Shown: in pieces, positions 23,142 to 31,252 of the stretch | Layout: every line of letters begins with the position of its first letter | How positions within the stretch are numbered: the first letter of the stretch is position 1 | From: Trichodelitschia bisporula | Lineage: Eukaryota | Length of the DNA stretch: 64,000 bases | NCBI GenBank assembly: GCA_010356995.1 | Contig: ML996688.1 | Span: 1,710,579-1,774,578 of the forward strand | Direction of reading: 5' to 3' | Position numbers and translations under genes: made by a program | Notes under the pieces: model-generated | Told to the model about the DNA's origin: nothing | Database searches by the model: none | The model's input: the letters and a program-made list of their open reading frames with translations, nothing else

Positions 23142-24837
23142 ATGCCTTCCTTCGTTCATGTTGTTGCGGTGGTTGCCGCCTTTTCAGTTTCGTTCTCGAA
23201 TGCGGTACCAACACAGCCGAATGAGACTGTCTCAAAGCCGGCCTTCGAGACGACATGTGGTGGTAAAAACTACGTCTACGATGGACTTGCAGGATACGGG
23301 TTTGTACCTCCCTCAAATGTGGACAAGTACGGCGACACAATTGGCGGATTCGGATCGTCCATTGCCATTAGCGGGTGGAAGAAGTCCGGCAAATCCTACA
23401 AGGGTACACTGTACGGCCTACCGGACCGGGGCTGGAACACCAATGGCTCTATCAACTTCATCCCTCGCGTACACAAGTTCGCCCTGACCTTCACTCCCAA
23501 TCCCGCCGCGTCCATCAGCAAGCCGGGCTCTCCCAACATCGACCTGAAGTACCAGGACACCATCTTGCTCAAGGGCCCAGATGGCACCCCTGCCACCGGC
23601 TTGGACGCCGACGTCGGAGGCGCGCTGAAGTACCCCGGCTTTCCGGACCTACCCGTCGCGACGTATACGGGCGACGGCTTCGGCGGTGCCGGTCCCGGCG
23701 GCAAGGCTATTCCGATCGACTCGGAAGGCATTGTCCTAACTTCCGACGGCGGGTTCTGGATCAGCGACGAGTATGGCCCGTATGTGTACAAATTCGATGC
23801 CTCGGGCAAGATGACCAAGGCCATCCGTCCGCCCAATGCGATCCTGCCGCTGCGCAATGGCACGGTCAGCTTCAATGCCAATACCGCGCCGCGCTCGGAT
23901 CCGAAGCGCAAGACTATCCCGGCGAACCCCACGCAGGGCCGCCAGAACAACCAGGGCTTTGAGGGGTTGACTACTGCTCCCAAGGGCGAGACGCTTTATG
24001 TTTTGCTCCAGTCTGCCGCTTTCCAGGAAGGTCCGTGAAATCGATTATCAAAAGTGGATCATGCTGATATTGGTCCAGGCGGTGCCAATGCTTCGACGCG
24101 TTTCAACACCCGCTTCCTCAAGTACTCCATCAAGGACAGTAAGAAGGACCCGGAGTTGCAGGCCGAGTATGTCGTCCAGCTTCCCATCTTCAAGGACGCC
24201 TCGAATGCGACCAAGGTCGCTGCTCAGTCGGAAGTGCACTACATCTCCGACACGCAATTCCTGATCTTGGCTCGAGATTCCGGTAACGGTCACGGGCAGT
24301 CCGGTTCCAAGTCCCTGTACCGTCACGCAGATATCTTTGATATCACCAAGGCGACCAACATCAAGGGCACCTACGATGCGTTCAATCAGTCGATTGCCAG
24401 CATCAATGGCGCGTTGAAGACGGGCATCACGCCCGCAACTTACTGCTCGTTCCTCGACTTCAACCTCAACTCCGAGCTGAACAAGTTCGGCGTGCATAAC
24501 GGCGGGGCGCAGGATGCGGGCCTTCTGAATGAGAAGTGGGAGGGTTTAGCGCTGCTTCCCGTCATTGGTGAGGACAAGCAGGGCAAGCGGGACGGGAAGG
24601 GCAAGGACAAGGAGGATGGTGATGAGTACTACCTGTTCTCGCTCTCCGATAATGACTTCATCACTCAGAATGGTATGTAATGAGAGTGTTTTGGAGGTGG
24701 ACGCAGCTAACGGTTCCGTAGGCAAGATTGATGGAGGCAAGATCTCGTACGCCGATGCCAGCGGCTTCAGTCTTGACAACCAGGCGCTGGTTTTCAAGGT
24801 AACTATTCCGAAGGGCTCGAAGCCTCTGAAGTCCTAG
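23142..24837 (+). CDS. Secreted phytase-like esterase (esterase-like activity of phytase domain), 2 introns
   Basis: Signal peptide and motifs GLPDRGWN, DSEGI..FWISDEYGPYVY, NNQGFEGLT, EKWEGLAL and LSDNDF. Introns at about 24032-24078 and 24674-24721. Confidence 0.88.
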
Positions 24838-25431
24838 GGCTGTGTTGCTTCATTTGGAGGGTCTAAATGTCCGGTATGAGCGGTTCTGTTGGATAGCACT
24901 TTAGTAATGTGGTAATGTTTGACTCCGAAGGCTCAGCCAATTCACCAAGGCTGATATCTAAGATGCTCCTGTGGATAAGTCCATTCAGCAAAGCCTTACA
25001 TAAAAACCCCTCTCGCGAGCAAGTCCAGCAGCAAAGCTACGGGTACCTATTCCACATTCCATTTGCAGGCTGCAACACGTGGACATCCAGTACGGGTACG
25101 GTAAAACCCGTCCCATTTCCGCGCCCCCGCGGATCGACACCCAATCCCCCGAACCACCAATCGGCACCTCCGAACCCCTCCCATGCGCCCGGGCCGTGCA
25201 TGCGACCGTCTAACCCAGCTTCCCGTCTGGATCATAGCCCGAAGCCGCACCCCTGTTGGTGTTCCATCGGCTCAGCTGCGGGGGACCAATCAGCGCCCAG
25301 CACAGCCATCTGGCAGCAAGGCGCGGCTGAAGACACTCAGCCTACGATCAACGCGGTACATAACCCGGCGGACCTCACATCTCCGCAATAGCACAAGGCC
25401 AAGTCCCTCGTTTCTTTACCCCACGAGCACA

Positions 25432-26390
25432 ATGCGCCCCACTCTCCTGCTCGCTGCGCTCGGCCCCCTCCCCACAGCCCTAGCCTGGGGCGCGCTGGGG
25501 CACTCCACCGTCGCACTCATCGCGCAAGCACTCATCAAGCCGGAAACACAGACCTGGGCGCAAGGCGTACTGGCCAACAAGAACAGCACCTACCTCGCCG
25601 ACGTCGCGAACTGGGCCGATTCATACCGGTCCACCTCAGCGGGCGCATTCTCGAGTCCTTACCACTACATCGACGCAGAAGATTCACCGCCGCATAACTG
25701 CAGCGTGGATTTTGAGCGGGATTGCGGGCCGGGGGGGTGTGTCGTTGCTGCTATTGCGAATTACGTGAGTTGGCTCTCGAAGGCGGCGGGGCAAGGCTGA
25801 TAGGGTCAGACGACGCGCGTGCAAGACTCGACACTCCCCAGCATCGAGCGCGACCACGCCCTGCGCTTCGTCGTGCACTTCGTCGGGGACATCCACCAGC
25901 CGCTGCACTGCGAAGCGCTTGAGAAGGGCGGCAACGGGATCAAAGTGACCTTCAACGGGTCCTCCACGAACCTGCACCACGTGTGGGACAGCAACATCGC
26001 CGAGAAACTGATCGGAGGGTTTAATACCACTTATGCTGCTAAATGGATGGCGCAGTTGGTGCCTGCACTGCAGACTGGGGTGTATGCTGCGCAGACGAAG
26101 GGTTGGACGAAGGGGTTGAGTGTGGGGAAGGCGAAGGAGGCGGCGCTGTTGTGGGCGGGGGAGGCGAATGGGGAGGTTTGTACGGCGGTTATGCCGCAGG
26201 GTGTTGATGCGGTGGAGACGGGCGATTTGGCGGGGAAGTATTATACGGGGACGGCGCCGGTGGTGCAGGAGCAGATTGCGAAGGGTGAGTTTGGAGCGTT
26301 GGTTTTTCTGGATGCGGGCTAATTCGTGCAGCGGGGTATCGGCTTGCGGCGTGGTTGGATTTGATTGCGACGGGATGTACGGCATTGTAG
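25432..26390 (+). CDS. Secreted S1/P1 nuclease, 2 introns
   Basis: Signal peptide followed by mature N-terminal WGALGH. Motifs ANWADSYR, HYIDA, HFVGDIHQPLH, NLHHVWD and AGYRLAAWLD. Confidence 0.95.
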
Positions 26391-27438
26391 AGGGGCGGGT
26401 ATTAGGAGTGGGTTTTGGTCGGGTAATCGGATGGGGCCGCGATAAGGGACGAGGCCGGGTTGTACATGCGAGGACGATATTCCGGCTCATCGGGCTATTC
26501 TGGGGAAACATTGGATATCCGAGTAAACGCGGGCCTTCAAGCCCGAGATGCTGTCGAAGCTACAATATGCTAAGCTTCCTTGCCGGGGAATCATGTGCGC
26601 TTCTTGATATTGCGGTACGCAAAATTGATGTTGCTAATTCCGTATTCCGTGGACCTAGATTAACGATCAGCATCCGCTCCAGTTCCTGGCGCCCGGAACA
26701 GTCCAGACGTCGCTCCTTGCCGGGCCGGAAGAGTCGAGCAATATATACACGATAAAGTGGAGATGCAAAGTCGTCGAGAGTGTGGAGTCTTAGTTCTGGA
26801 CTCGAAAAATAGCCACAAAGCCAAGCGCCACTCGAAACGGCGCGGCCCGCATCGACGCCCCACGCCTCAACACCAACGTCGCGCCATCATGGCAACCCGG
26901 CATACAACTCATGATGCCCGCGCTGCTCAGTCTGCGAACACAGCCTTTTCCTGTGCGAAACAACCCTCCGAGTAGAGCCTCTAGCAATAACCCCCGCCCC
27001 AGATCGCCATTTCCAACGCCAAATACTCGTCAATCCAACCACCAAGCCCGTCAATCCAACCCCAAAACCCCATAAACATCTCTCCCGTTTCAACGTCGCC
27101 AATCCTTCCCATTTCCCATAATATGTCCTACTCATATGCCTAGCTGTTACTACTCACTTTCCCCAGATCCCGCAGCAATATACGTGACGCACGGGCATCC
27201 AACCACTCAAAATACCTGTCAAATTTGATCTTGATTCATGCGTACTGCGCCCAGGGTGCACACTATATCTACACCACGAGCGCCAGACGCTAAAATAACG
27301 ACATCAACAATCACAGTTCCATTCTTTAGTTCAGCCTCACCGTTCTCAGCAGCCTCATTTGTTCCCGCAAGACTTCGTCTGTTTCTTCTTCAAACCTACA
27401 CACTTTTTCCATCCACCAGTCCCCGCCAAATAACCACC

Positions 27439-27807
27439 ATGCGCTTCATCGCCATTCTCGCTCTCCTTCCCCTCATGGCTTACGCCCTCCCCAACGTCCG
27501 TCCCCTCCCTCCCCTCCAAACCCCCATAAAACTAACACGCCCCCAGCCCACTCAAACCCCCCAAATCGGCGCCGCCTTCGCCTGCACCACGCACTCCGAC
27601 TGCGCCGTCAAAAACCGTCCCAACTGCTGCGGCCATCAAGACGTATGCGCGCACCAGTCCGCCGTTTTCAGCGAGAACCCGAACTGCGCGGGCAGGATGT
27701 CTGTGTGCGGTTTCGTGAAGATCGCGGCGTGTGAATGCCGGAATGGGGCGTGTGCGGCGGCAAGGCCGGTGATGGGGAGTGCGGGAGGGAGTGAGAGTCC
27801 AGTGTAG
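27439..27807 (+). CDS. Small secreted cysteine-rich protein (10 Cys), 1 intron
   Basis: MRFIAILALLPLMAYALP signal peptide, a 51-nt intron 27496-27546 (GTCCGT..CTAAC..CAG), then CTTHSDCAVKNRPNCCGHQDVC..C..SVCGF..CECRNGAC. Confidence 0.85.
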   Translation: MRFIAILALLPLMAYALPNVRPLPPLQTPIKLTRPQPTQTPQIGAAFACTTHSDCAVKNRPNCCGHQDVCAHQSAVFSENPNCAGRMSVCGFVKIAACECRNGACAAARPVMGSAGGSESPV

Positions 27808-28077
27808 GGGGGATTATGGCGAGATATTGAGGTTCGACGGCGTGGCTGAGGGGGGAGATATACTGTAGGATCATCGCATTTTTGCTAGCTGAACGGCATG
27901 ACGTGCCTTTTTCCATACCAGTCCCCGTCCGCACGAACCTGGACAGCCACAGCTACCGCTACGCCTGGACGCTCGCCCCTTCCCTCCTCCACTGTCTCCG
28001 GTTTGCCCCTTCCCCCCTTACAAGCCCACACTCTCACCTCTCTATATGCCGGCCGCTTTCATCTCCTTCCATCAAGC

Positions 28078-28149
28078 AGCCGGATGGCGCAACAGAGGCT
28101 CGCCGCGCTCACTCCTCGGAGGTCGTTGGATCAACACCAACTTCGGCTA
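28078..28149 (+). tRNA. Initiator-tRNA-derived gene, copy 1, anticodon CAC (probably a pseudogene)
   Basis: 72-nt cloverleaf: acceptor AGCCGGA/TTCGGCT, anticodon arm CCGCG-CTCACTC-CTCGG, T arm GTTGG-ATCAACA-CCAAC, followed by a T6 terminator. The D loop and B box are degraded. Confidence 0.7.
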
Positions 28150-28408
28150 TATTTTTTGGCCCTTTTTGGGCTTTTCGGGCCTTTTCTTTGGGCACCGAGG
28201 ATACTGGAAGTTGGGACGGGCAGACGATAGATGAGATCGGGGGAGGTAGTGTAGAATCGCTTTTCGTGCTGCTGAGCAGCGACATGTGTGATGCTATGTC
28301 GGTCGCCGTCCACACCTGCACGTACCCGAGCAGCCACGCCCACAGCCACACCGCCTCCCCCTTTCGAAACTCCGCAGTTTGCCCTTCGTTCAATTCCCTC
28401 CTATCAAT

Positions 28409-28481
28409 AGTTGTTGTGGCGTAGCGGAAGCGTAGCGGGTTCATAACCCGGGGGACGGTGGATCAAAACCACCTTCAGCCC
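28409..28481 (+). tRNA. Initiator tRNA-Met(CAT)-like gene, copy 2, acceptor stem disrupted (pseudogene-like)
   Basis: TGGCGTAGCGGAAGCG D arm, CGGG-TTCATAA-CCCG anticodon arm with the initiator GGG/CCC pairs, GGTGG-ATCAAAA-CCACC T arm and a T5 terminator. Confidence 0.75.
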
Positions 28482-28756
28482 TTTTTGGAGTCTTTTAGAC
28501 TTTTCTTTGGAGTGTCGAGAATGTTTTGGGCTGGAATGGACGGGCGGTAGGCTGGACTGGAGGGGGCGTACTGAAGGATACCGCTTTTTTGACAGTTGAA
28601 GGGCGTGATGTGCCGGTTTTTATGCCAGTCTTCCACACCCGCCACTCATTCCTTCCCCCGTTCTTCCCTCCTTCCCGCCAGCACTCCCCCGCCACCCCCA
28701 CAAGGCCACACTCTCGGTCTTTACACACCGACGGCTTCAATCACTCCCCATCAAGC

Positions 28757-28828
28757 AGCTGAATTGTGCAGCGGAAGCGCGCCCAGCTCACACCTGGGAG
28801 GACGGTGGATCGAAACCACCTTTGGCTA
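28757..28828 (+). tRNA. Initiator-tRNA-derived gene, copy 3, intact cloverleaf with CAC anticodon
   Basis: AGCTGAA/TTTGGCT acceptor (A1:U72), GTGC-AGCGGAA-GCGC D arm, CCCAG-CTCACAC-CTGGG anticodon arm, GGTGG-ATCGAAA-CCACC initiator-type T arm, discriminator A and a T6 terminator. Confidence 0.85.
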
Positions 28829-29099
28829 GCTTTTTTGGAGACTTTCGGGGTTTTCTTTGAGTGCGGAGGCTGTTTGGAGTTGGAATGGGTGTAGATGGGG
28901 CTGGGCTGTGTCGGAGAGCGATGGGTGGTGGAGGAATTGCGTGGGAGGGTGGGTTAAGGGTGGACTAGGATGCAGGGTCAGAGGTGGAAGAATATTTACA
29001 GTCCCTGACAATACGGTGCCTTGACGATATGCACGGCCGTATCTCAGGAAACCTTAATCCCATCAGCAAAGCCAGCAAGACCATCGAATCACTCACCCG

Positions 29100-30011
29100 C
29101 TAAACAACCCACACCCCCCTCGCCTTAACACAAACCGTCCCATCCAACCTCTCCGCCGCCCCCTCGACAACATACTCCCTCCCCCCCTTAACCACCTCCT
29201 CCGCCTTCCCGCCCCAAAACCAACCAAACCAGCCCCGTCCCACCTTCTCCGTAAGATCCTTCTCCCTCTCCAACCCCAGGTCCACGCTCCCCTTCCCGTT
29301 CTCCCCTCCCTCCCCGGGCGGCAGGACCTTAAACCGCAACGCATAAAAATCCCTCGCATTCTTCGGCTTCACATACGTAAGCCCCAGATGCTTCGGTTCC
29401 GGCGGCGTGTCCCCAAGGAACGTCTCCGCTTCCCTCCCTTCCTTACGGCCCTGAACCCACTGCACCCCCCTGCCCATCCCCTCCACCAAAACCGTCGCAA
29501 CGCCCCCGCCATGCGCAAGGCCAGGCCACCCGCTCATCCCCCCGCCCACCCAAAACACCACAACGCCCTCCCCGCGCTCCCCAGACCAGAATACCCGTCG
29601 CTCGCCCAACCCCGCGACACCGGCTAGCGTCTCGCCGACTAAGCGTCCCGCGCTGCTCCAGGGCACGGTGAGCTCTTCCCATCGGCCTTCGGCCTCTTCG
29701 GCACGCAGGCGCTGGACGAAGGGCAGGCTGTCGAGGCGCGTGTGCAGCTCTGCGAGGTCGGCTAGGTGTTGTGGTGTGCCAGGCAGAGCGAGAGGCGAGG
29801 GGCGGATGATGCGCGAGGCGATGGTCCCAGATGTCCAGCCTAGGCTGAGGAAGAGGGCTGCGTAGGCGAGGGGGCGGAGGAGGGAGCGGCGGGGTTTGGG
29901 TGGAGGGGAAATCGGTGCGGTGGCTGAGGTTGAGGTCGGGCGGTGGAGACGCGGGTGAGATTTGAGAGGGCGGAGGAGGGTGGGAGTGTGGGGACGTAGT
30001 CGTGGTGGCAT
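29100..30011 (-). CDS. Mitochondrial hotdog-fold thioesterase family protein (Fmp10-like)
   Basis: Arg-rich presequence MPPRLRP.., one TM segment, LVGETLAG and the PaaI-type motif SGWPGLAHGGGVATVL. Confidence 0.75.
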   Translation of the reverse strand: MPPRLRPHTPTLLRPLKSHPRLHRPTSTSATAPISPPPKPRRSLLRPLAYAALFLSLGWTSGTIASRIIRPSPLALPGTPQHLADLAELHTRLDSLPFVQRLRAEEAEGRWEELTVPWSSAGRLVGETLAGVAGLGERRVFWSGERGEGVVVFWVGGGMSGWPGLAHGGGVATVLVEGMGRGVQWVQGRKEGREAETFLGDTPPEPKHLGLTYVKPKNARDFYALRFKVLPPGEGGENGKGSVDLGLEREKDLTEKVGRGWFGWFWGGKAEEVVKGGREYVVEGAAERLDGTVCVKARGVWVV

Positions 30012-31252
30012 TGTGGTGGTTATGGTTGTGGTTGTGGTTTGGATTGTGATGCCGAGGGCCGTCAATGTCGTGAAGTCGTCGAGAGAGTGGTGAGGCAACA
30101 AGGCTGCAGTGCCAAGATATATAATCACGTGACAGAAAGGTTGGAAATGTAGCTACTTGCTTAATTGACTTCCATTGTCTTCACCTTAACATCCTGAATC
30201 TCATTCCTGCTCTCCATACTTGCCATGGACGAGAAGATTGAGTTCAGAACGGTGTGGCTGGACTAAAGTTTAGGTGTGGCCCCGCTTCCGTTGGGCGGCG
30301 GCGGTTAGCGTAAGCGCCATTAGCCTTGGCTATGACGTCGATTAAAATGAGAGTGAGGGGTTTGAAACAAAGAGCGACTTGGGGGAAATTGTTTTGGATA
30401 GAAGGAGCTATGAGAAGTGCCAGTTCATTCCAGAAAGGAAGGCCTTGCGTCGATCGTGACTGCTTTTGGGCGCGGCCTAATTCGCGTGTGACTACTTTGG
30501 GGATGCTCATGTGGCAGGATGAGGTTGCTTTGGGCACGAGTTCTCATGCGGGTTGGGAGGGGCTGGTGCTGAGAGAGAGGGTCCGGAAAAACGGCGCGGA
30601 ATCAAGCTTTTCGCACCAAGTGGGTGGGATGCGTTGTTTTCGACGATACGTCCAGTTGCCCCTCACTCACCGTCCGAATTTGGCGATGCATGTCTGAAGT
30701 TCCAACTTCAGGGATCACAGAAAGGGTAATGCGTGGCTGAGTTCCAACTTCGAAATCCAAGCGGCGCGATGCATGTCTCAGTTCCAACTTCAGGTTCCTG
30801 GAAGTCGGTGAATTCCCACAAACTAGGCCAATGGCCGGTGCTGAGCCACAAGTCTCAATCCCAGAAGGCGATGGACCCTCATGAACCAGACCGCAGACCG
30901 CTGTCGACGAACCACGCATCTCAATCCCTCCGCAGTGGAGAGATATCGCAAGCCGTGCAACTGACCCACCGGTCCGGTCCGTCCAATCCATAGACAGGAA
31001 GAAGTAAACATCGAAACATGGTCAAATCACAGTGCAAAAGCTTCAGCAGGTCATTCATCCATTCTCTAGACACATCTAGGACGCGCTCCCTCCTCCACCA
31101 TGATTAACCCATCGCATCGCAAAACACCGCACGACAGGCAGAAAAACGCAGCAGGCATCATCCACAACAAAACAAGGGTATCGAATAGCACCACCTCTCT
31201 CATCCCTTCGTCTCCTCAATCAAACGCCTATCGCTACACCCGTCTCATCAGC

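Follow-up and report, generated by a model that had tools for sequence, protein, structure and literature searches.

In Trichodelitschia bisporula, the space between two convergent genes is filled by a tandem array of three diverged units, each built around a sequence derived from an initiator tRNA-Met gene. One of these sequences (copy 3) has a sound tRNA shape that is statistically non-random, and its anticodon loop carries the bases of a valine tRNA. The best reading of the evidence is that an initiator gene was recruited to valine. The array lies on contig ML996688.1 within the window, i.e., the whole stretch of 64,000 nucleotides that was analyzed, and its features are given in Table 1. 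An earlier sequence-only reading had offered tRNA neofunctionalization, a source of tRNA fragments, or a chromatin boundary as explanations; the first of these fits best, specifically as a valine switch through U36C plus A38C.

Table 1. Coordinates of the array, its three copies, and the flanking genes (positions in the window)
Feature	Position	Strand	Remarks
Tandem array, about 3 diverged units of 330-350 bp	27820..28910	+	Ends approximate; from spacer alignments
Copy 1, initiator-derived, anticodon CAC, C38	28078..28149	+	Probably a decayed gene
T6 run, Pol III terminator-like, 3' of copy 1	28152..28157	+	
Copy 2, initiator-derived, anticodon CAT, acceptor stem broken	28410..28481	+	Pseudogene
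T5 run 3' of copy 2	28482..28486	+	
Copy 3, full cloverleaf, initiator body and valine loop	28757..28828	+	From ARAGORN, Rfam, and register with an initiator gene
Anticodon CAC, A37, and C38 of copy 3	28789..28793	+	Five bases identical to the genome's Val(CAC) genes
T6 run, Pol III terminator-like, 3' of copy 3	28831..28836	+	
Left neighbor, small cysteine-rich protein	27439..27807	+	Hydrophobic N terminus, probably secreted
Right neighbor ORF	29100..30011	-	Database form labeled thioesterase-domain by one source

The anticodons CAC, CAT, and CAC, as first read from the sequence, were confirmed at 28110-28112, 28442-28444, and 28789-28791, respectively. The starts given for copies 1 and 3 were right, but in the initiator register copy 2 begins at 28410 and not at 28409, which places the units 332 and 347 nt apart. 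Homology of the flanks had also been proposed and proved to be real and longer than claimed: pairwise spacer alignments (uncertain in this low-complexity DNA) scored z values of 3.8, 10.6, and 6.0 against shuffles keeping local composition, and homology ran from ∼27820 to ∼28910. The whole spacer belongs to the duplicated unit, and the long upstream flanks common to the copies are as expected of tandem duplication at the DNA level. The upstream flank motif singled out previously is present, but a CATCAA-type motif is general near tRNA genes of this genome, with ATC[AC]A found within 16 nt upstream in 17 of 30 tRNA genes checked; the upstream CATCAA is partly generic. Tandem Repeats Finder left the array undetected. 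An assembly error is disfavored by two DNA sequencing runs that showed zero differences from the assembly in the window, though these runs may be the assembly's own source.

Four sequencing runs, all from T. bisporula, cover the region. Two of them behave as RNA, since they are spliced at GT-AG introns; both represent one sample, and their contigs carry no information on strand, transcript ends, or expression level. In these contigs the intron of the left neighbor (27496-27546) is spliced. The right neighbor has an intron in its 3' untranslated region (29051-29094, minus strand), a few bases past the stop codon, and its mRNA therefore heads toward the array. No Pfam match was obtained for the unspliced frame of the left neighbor or for the right neighbor, and a neighbor-protein search returned solely T. 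bisporula's own model. Coverage of the RNA runs has a gap at 26636-26802, and one contig shows a single A>C at 28637. Farther to the left (23142-26320), Pfam matches identify phytase-like esterase and S1/P1 nuclease genes, which make up a secreted-protein block.

Copy 3 forms 21 of 21 pairs without a mismatch, and none of its 15 invariant positions is altered. It carries 10 changes from a normal initiator with C65, which is a mere proxy for the ancestor in this and the following change counts, and differs at 11 of 72 positions from each of the genome's normal initiators L002 and L008. Like eukaryotic initiator tRNA-Met (yeast IMT; here L002 and L008 to L012), it has a 72-nt body that lacks position 17, and it retains A1-U72, C3-G70, G31-C39, A54, and A60; positions 42-67 are identical to those of L002. 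It departs from that tRNA in the anticodon (CAC in place of CAT), in C38 and U9, and in two of the three G-C pairs that lie in a row in the anticodon stem (29-41, 30-40, and 31-39), which read C-G, A-U, and G-C. Both replaced pairs, C29-G41 and A30-U40, are compensated Watson-Crick pairs. Judged by its sequence, copy 3 has the makings of a Pol III tRNA gene, with a full cloverleaf, invariant bases, an unchanged B box, and a T6 run downstream.

Some of its features are weaker. Metazoan tRNAs other than tRNA-His have a purine at position 9 (PMC9023262), and so do all 92 distinct viral CAT initiator bodies among the matches listed. New G.U pairs are found at 4-69, 5-68, and 11-24 (U4.G69, G5.U68, and U11.G24), the first two adjacent to each other in the acceptor stem; E. 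coli tRNA-Val is reported to be impaired when its third or fourth pair is G.U (PMC9976931). The cloverleaf energy of copy 3 was -22.8 kcal/mol, compared to -27.7 and -30.2 kcal/mol for initiator genes. ARAGORN called copy 3 alone among the three copies, and Rfam scored it at 46.9 bits, versus 62.8 to 66.2 bits for normal genes; part of copy 2 scored 27.7 bits, and copy 1 was unlisted.

When the changes of copy 3 were placed at random with transition shares of 0.33 to 0.9, its pairing alone had a P of 8.5e-5 to 3.2e-3, and pairing plus invariant bases had a P of ≤3.1e-4. In a five-row alignment, five pairs were changed on both sides, a number reached by 0 of 500 shuffles (kinship among the rows inflates this control). 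Shuffling of single bodies was uninformative (z = -0.60, -0.18, and -0.44). Statistically, these results suggest that the cloverleaf of copy 3 was kept under selection.

Copies 1 and 2 differ from the initiator by 17 and 16 changes, respectively. Covariation in the T stem, noted earlier, is borne out by U50-A64 in copy 1 versus G50-C64 in copies 2 and 3, and the acceptor stem of copy 1 does differ from that of copy 3, each pairing at 7 of 7 positions (G.U counted). Copy 1 has compensated pairs at 4-69 and 50-64, both of which are variable among initiators. It also contains the mismatches C11.U24 and C30.U40 and has lost invariant bases through G15A, G18A, and A21G; in the yeast initiator, a mismatch of two purines or two pyrimidines at 29:41 or 30:40 is in most cases lethal (PMC3950347). 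In copy 2, four of seven acceptor pairs are mismatched, a fifth mismatch is G27.G43, position 73 is C, and no cloverleaf is formed (-7.9 kcal/mol), while the D-loop, T-arm, A and B boxes, and CAT are still there. With random placement of changes, the pairing pattern had a P of 0.001 to 0.05 for copy 1 and 0.11 to 0.50 for copy 2. Neither copy combines the paired stems and invariant tertiary bases of a functional tRNA. Copy 2 is a pseudogene, and copy 1 is probably a decayed gene. The proposed family of maintained tRNA-like RNAs thus could not be upheld, as copy 2 lacks an acceptor stem and copy 1 core tertiary bases. Selection on structure after duplication is retained as a claim for copy 3, in weaker form and for the past only for copy 1, and not at all for copy 2.

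Copies 1 and 3 share the changes U36C, A38C, C40U, and A69G, and most simply they therefore had one common ancestor. That two copies have the CAT-to-CAC change is correct at the sequence level, and it is most simply explained by one inherited event, not two. Between these copies, bodies were 75% and flanks 60% identical (Fisher P = 0.033), the flanks differing at 86 of 217 aligned columns. Body and flank identities were equal in the other pairs (60 versus 61%, P = 0.89, for copies 1 and 2; 64 versus 60%, P = 0.68, for copies 2 and 3), and the idea that structure was maintained while the flanks diverged holds for copies 1 and 3, i.e., one lineage, and fails for the other two comparisons. Private changes numbered 6 in copy 3 and 13 in copy 1, which is no significant difference (P = 0.17). 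The ancestry of the units is mosaic, with downstream flanks joining copies 2 and 3 and bodies joining copies 1 and 3.

Through U36C and A38C, positions 34-38 of copies 1 and 3 read CACAC, which matches the Val(CAC) genes of the genome. Copy 3 possesses the full valine set of A35, C36, C38, and A73. A review lists A73 and A35 as determinants of eukaryal tRNA-Val and states that wheat germ valyl-tRNA synthetase (ValRS) depends strongly on A35, C36, and C38 in the tRNA-like structure of TYMV (PMC9976931); this structure and the Val(CAC) genes (L003 to L005) have A35, C36, A37, C38, and A73 in common with copy 3. C38 was present in 3 of 3 Val(CAC) genes and in the Val(TAC) gene fetched from the genome. 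Position 38 was A in 116 of 116 viral CAT bodies (92 of 92 distinct ones; 126 motif matches at 120 viral loci) among the matches listed. The chance of obtaining C36 plus C38 was 0.001 to 0.004, a post hoc figure. A change of anticodon accompanied by a covarying identity base on a paralogous body, here U36C with A38C, is the signature of an alloacceptor shift.

The body of copy 3 does not derive from the valine family: it differs from Val(CAC) L003, its stems, D-loop, and T-loop are unrelated to those of the genome's Val genes, and a search of the genome with the unit matched only initiators. A search for a tRNA that could have donated its anticodon arm yielded only two-mismatch matches, five against three for a control pattern; three of the five matches that could pair were inspected. 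In an inventory with 63 of 695 tRNA candidates scored, the genome, which comprises 25.8 Mb in 44 contigs, contains six normal initiator genes (five identical and one variant; L002 and L008 to L012), at least three Val(CAC) genes, and one Val(TAC) gene. The search for ValRS gave one full-length match in the genome, and a special synthetase was rejected on that ground. Among the fetched loci, the Val(CAC) gene in L003:1501-1759 has, 105 nt downstream on its own strand, a Thr(CGT) gene that contains an intron.

These observations suggest the following course of events. The first step, directly evident from the array, was the tandem duplication of an initiator tRNA-Met gene along with its flanks. 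One descendant would then have switched identity via U36C and A38C; the substitutions themselves are seen in the sequence, and charging with valine is predicted from them. This valine-type descendant presumably duplicated again to give rise to copies 1 and 3, as their four shared changes suggest. Copy 3 appears to have stayed under selection for its cloverleaf, as the statistics indicate, while copies 1 and 2 decayed. Pol III most likely continues to transcribe copy 3 from the A and B boxes within the gene, and the single ValRS would charge it as a low-level extra reader of GUG in elongation. The loss of the initiator pairs G29-C41 and G30-C40 would represent drift from the initiator role.

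A comparable switch was found in unrelated DNA. Scanning metagenome DNA for NAC anticodons on an initiator-type body, leaving base 38 free, gave three loci (L070, L071, and L072), all with C38 and all with flanks unlike those in the window. L070:11-467 and L071:79-728 are related AT-rich contigs, counted here as one lineage, with tandem initiator-derived genes that have TAC, AAC, or CAT anticodons. Compared to the CAT copy of L070, the TAC copies show U36C, A38C, and replacement of G30-C40 by U-A, with G31-C39 kept. This switch is independent of that in T. bisporula. From their likeness to GVMAG contigs, L070 and L071 are probably giant-virus DNA; the ORF of L070 gave no Pfam match. Loops are odd and lack the standard C38 in the AAC copies, of which L071 has two and L193 one. 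L072, with G1, may have another origin than an initiator; in its segment 762-1938, a Val(CAC) gene with an initiator-type T loop lies in a tRNA cluster with Phe, Arg, and two Met genes, and a 156-bp direct repeat is found upstream. Scans of a viral collection detected no NAC anticodons on initiator bodies, from which we infer that the event is rare, and a phage BLAST search gave only two partial tRNA-Ile matches. On a giant-virus MAG contig (L193:1802-2301), three CAT initiators are accompanied by an initiator-type body with an enlarged loop, called Val(AAC) by ARAGORN. A viral contig (L189:150-620) carries three CAT genes and an initiator body with GAT (Ile), A38, and all three G-C pairs kept, which indicates that initiators have not shifted to valine only. 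Among the viral initiator-type tRNAs listed (L073 to L192), pair 29-41 was G-C in 61 of 92 distinct bodies, as opposed to the three G-C pairs of the textbook initiator.

Several readings of the present role of copy 3 were weighed. We tentatively favor a minor valine tRNA that supplements the reading of GUG during elongation, a role that is possible on the sequence evidence and against which several points can be raised. U9 replaces the purine seen in all listed viral initiator bodies, the G.U pairs at 4-69 and 5-68 are adjacent, and the Rfam score is below that of normal genes. At least three ordinary Val(CAC) genes make the need for another not evident, and a single genome is at issue. In addition, a T-arm region identical to that of L002, together with a Rit1 gene, could bar elongation, given that Rit1 does so in fungi by modifying position 64 (PMC11301382). 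Position 64 is C in copy 3 and in the genome's normal initiators (L002 and L008 to L012), not the purine modified by yeast Rit1; the Rit1 gene is present (L198 to L200). A rather unlikely account holds that copy 3 was long a working valine-type tRNA that recently stopped, so that all copies are now dead. U9, U11.G24, G5.U68, and U4.G69, each of which weakens copy 3, would then be the first signs of decay, in line with the weaker cloverleaf energy, the redundancy of the Val(CAC) genes, and the history of its sister copy 1, where compensation was followed by decay. The clean state of copy 3 is compatible with a recent death, the probability that neutral changes leave it clean being 0.35, 0.13, and 0.05 for one, two, and three changes. 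It falls to 0.017 for four and 0.002 for six and so allows a short neutral spell only, as against flanks that differ at more than a third of their aligned columns, and both the B box and the T6 run are intact. Copy 3 might instead be a natural second nuclear initiator in a eukaryote, an initiator body that receives valine from ValRS (or, weakly, methionine), is brought in through eIF2 or eIF2D, and starts at GUG with valine, which we regard as improbable. The retained A1-U72, C3-G70, G31-C39, A54, A60, and whole T-arm fit such a role, as does the presence of Rit1. Yeast growth is barely affected when pair 29:41 or 30:40 is swapped for another Watson-Crick pair, while such swaps at 31:39 cut accuracy most (PMC3950347); in mammalian cells, initiators with a mutated anticodon start translation at GUC (Drabkin and RajBhandary 1998, cited in PMC11744186); and eIF2D can initiate at GUG with Val-tRNA in vitro (PMC5666671). 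However, the methionine moiety sits in a pocket of eIF2 (PMC5393177), and valine should therefore bind eIF2 less well. General use of GUG starts would presumably create upstream starts throughout the transcriptome, at a cost, and pair 30-40, which is G-C or G.U in 91 of the 92 viral initiator bodies listed, has been replaced in copy 3 as well as in L070/L071.

The remaining explanations deny copy 3 a role in translation. It is distinctly unlikely that the array acts as DNA or small RNA, i.e., through TFIIIC boxes between convergent genes, tRNA fragments, or double-stranded RNA formed where transcripts overlap. In each of the three copies, the T stem is still fully paired, a B-box-like sequence remains, and a run of 5 to 6 T follows, but in copies 1 and 2 the boxes that remain cover few bases and may have survived by chance. 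RNA contigs spliced at the intron of either neighbor also cover the array: one joins exons of the left neighbor and crosses the array to 29026, and another, with the minus-strand intron 29051-29094, extends to 27989. Giving neither strand nor single transcripts, these contigs fit overlapping 3' ends of the neighbors and are silent on mature tRNA. The compensated acceptor and anticodon stems and the valine loop would be left unexplained, and the fold of the whole unit is ordinary (z = +1.11), a value on which a long hairpin or milRNA-like fold was rejected. Very improbable is that the copies were neutral pseudogenes from the start, partly converted by the six normal initiators, or members of a tRNA-derived SINE. 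This would agree with body identity equaling flank identity in two of three pairs and with the mosaic ancestry of the units; moreover, with a present-day initiator as proxy and pairs 4-69 and 50-64 variable, the compensations of copy 1 may be ancestral. Conversion by CAT genes could have preserved the T-arm but cannot have produced C36, C38, C29-G41, and A30-U40, no other tRNA donor for that anticodon arm was found among the matches inspected, and the random-placement simulation already makes neutrality unlikely. A genome-wide search with the unit, proposed earlier for separating a local array from a dispersed SINE, matched only the array and normal initiator genes and points to a local array; the many dispersed copies of a tRNA-derived SINE did not turn up. 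Genome DNA and pattern searches likewise revealed no dispersed unit copies (counts are lower bounds, and very decayed copies may be missed). The T-loop motif occurred at 52 sites, of which the array, the six initiators, L050, and 12 unexplained sites were examined; none of these 12 matched the model, and the 12th adjoins an Ala tRNA. Repeat-induced point mutation was rejected as well, with dinucleotide indices of 0.76 and 1.18 close to those of the window (0.63 and 1.20).

Anticodon shifts and chimeric tRNAs are already known; the initiator-to-valine case, from one genome and with a putative function, appears to be new. Alloacceptor shifts (Rogers and Griffiths-Jones 2014, PMC3923123) likewise involve a duplicated tRNA gene, a new anticodon, and a covarying identity base. 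In that survey of 36 eukaryotes, none of the filtered shifts are reported to involve initiator tRNAs and Val is absent from the main text; its supplement holds 233 unfiltered sets that may bear on initiator shifts. In chimeric tRNAs from tRNAscan-SE 2.0, such as human Val-AAC-6-1 on an Ala body (PMC4987944), anticodon and body isotypes are likewise discordant. Copy 3 differs from them in having an initiator body and a loop that gained a second valine determinant, which makes mere recoding less likely than a true switch. Engineered initiators (Drabkin and RajBhandary 1998, cited in PMC11744186) also combine an initiator body with a valine anticodon; those are laboratory constructs with GUC, whereas copy 3 occurs naturally in a nuclear genome and has CAC and compensated stems. 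The L070, L071, L193, and L189 arrays resemble ours in their tandem initiator bodies with changed anticodons, and the U36C, A38C, and compensated 30-40 changes recur in their TAC copies; they differ in being AT-rich and probably of giant-virus origin, in having TAC, AAC, or GAT, and in AAC copies that lack C38. We found no published report of tandem initiator-derived arrays like these four. A natural initiator-derived valine tRNA was not reported in the literature searched, with most subscription papers and supplements outside the search.

The initiator tRNA has been treated as a closed lineage, and the survey of eukaryotic anticodon shifts found none involving it (PMC3923123). Here, in a natural case with a parallel in unrelated DNA, the anticodon, a second synthetase determinant, and initiator stem pairs have all changed, which provides a ready test of the distinction between initiator and elongator and of the ability of a eukaryote to maintain an initiator other than a methionine one. 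Should copy 3 be dead, it would still record an initiator-to-valine switch that was selected for a time and would be of moderate interest. If it did initiate at GUG, the independent conversion in the giant-virus-like arrays would mean that this way of gaining an alternative start codon is a recurrent one.

Two further repeated features were noted. L018:1501-2996 contains three Ala(AGC) genes within 1.5 kb, in both orientations, with one intron call and one variant D-loop. In the window, a 15-nt motif occurs three times, ∼40 nt apart, at 30698-30794, in intergenic-looking DNA upstream of the thioesterase-labeled ORF.
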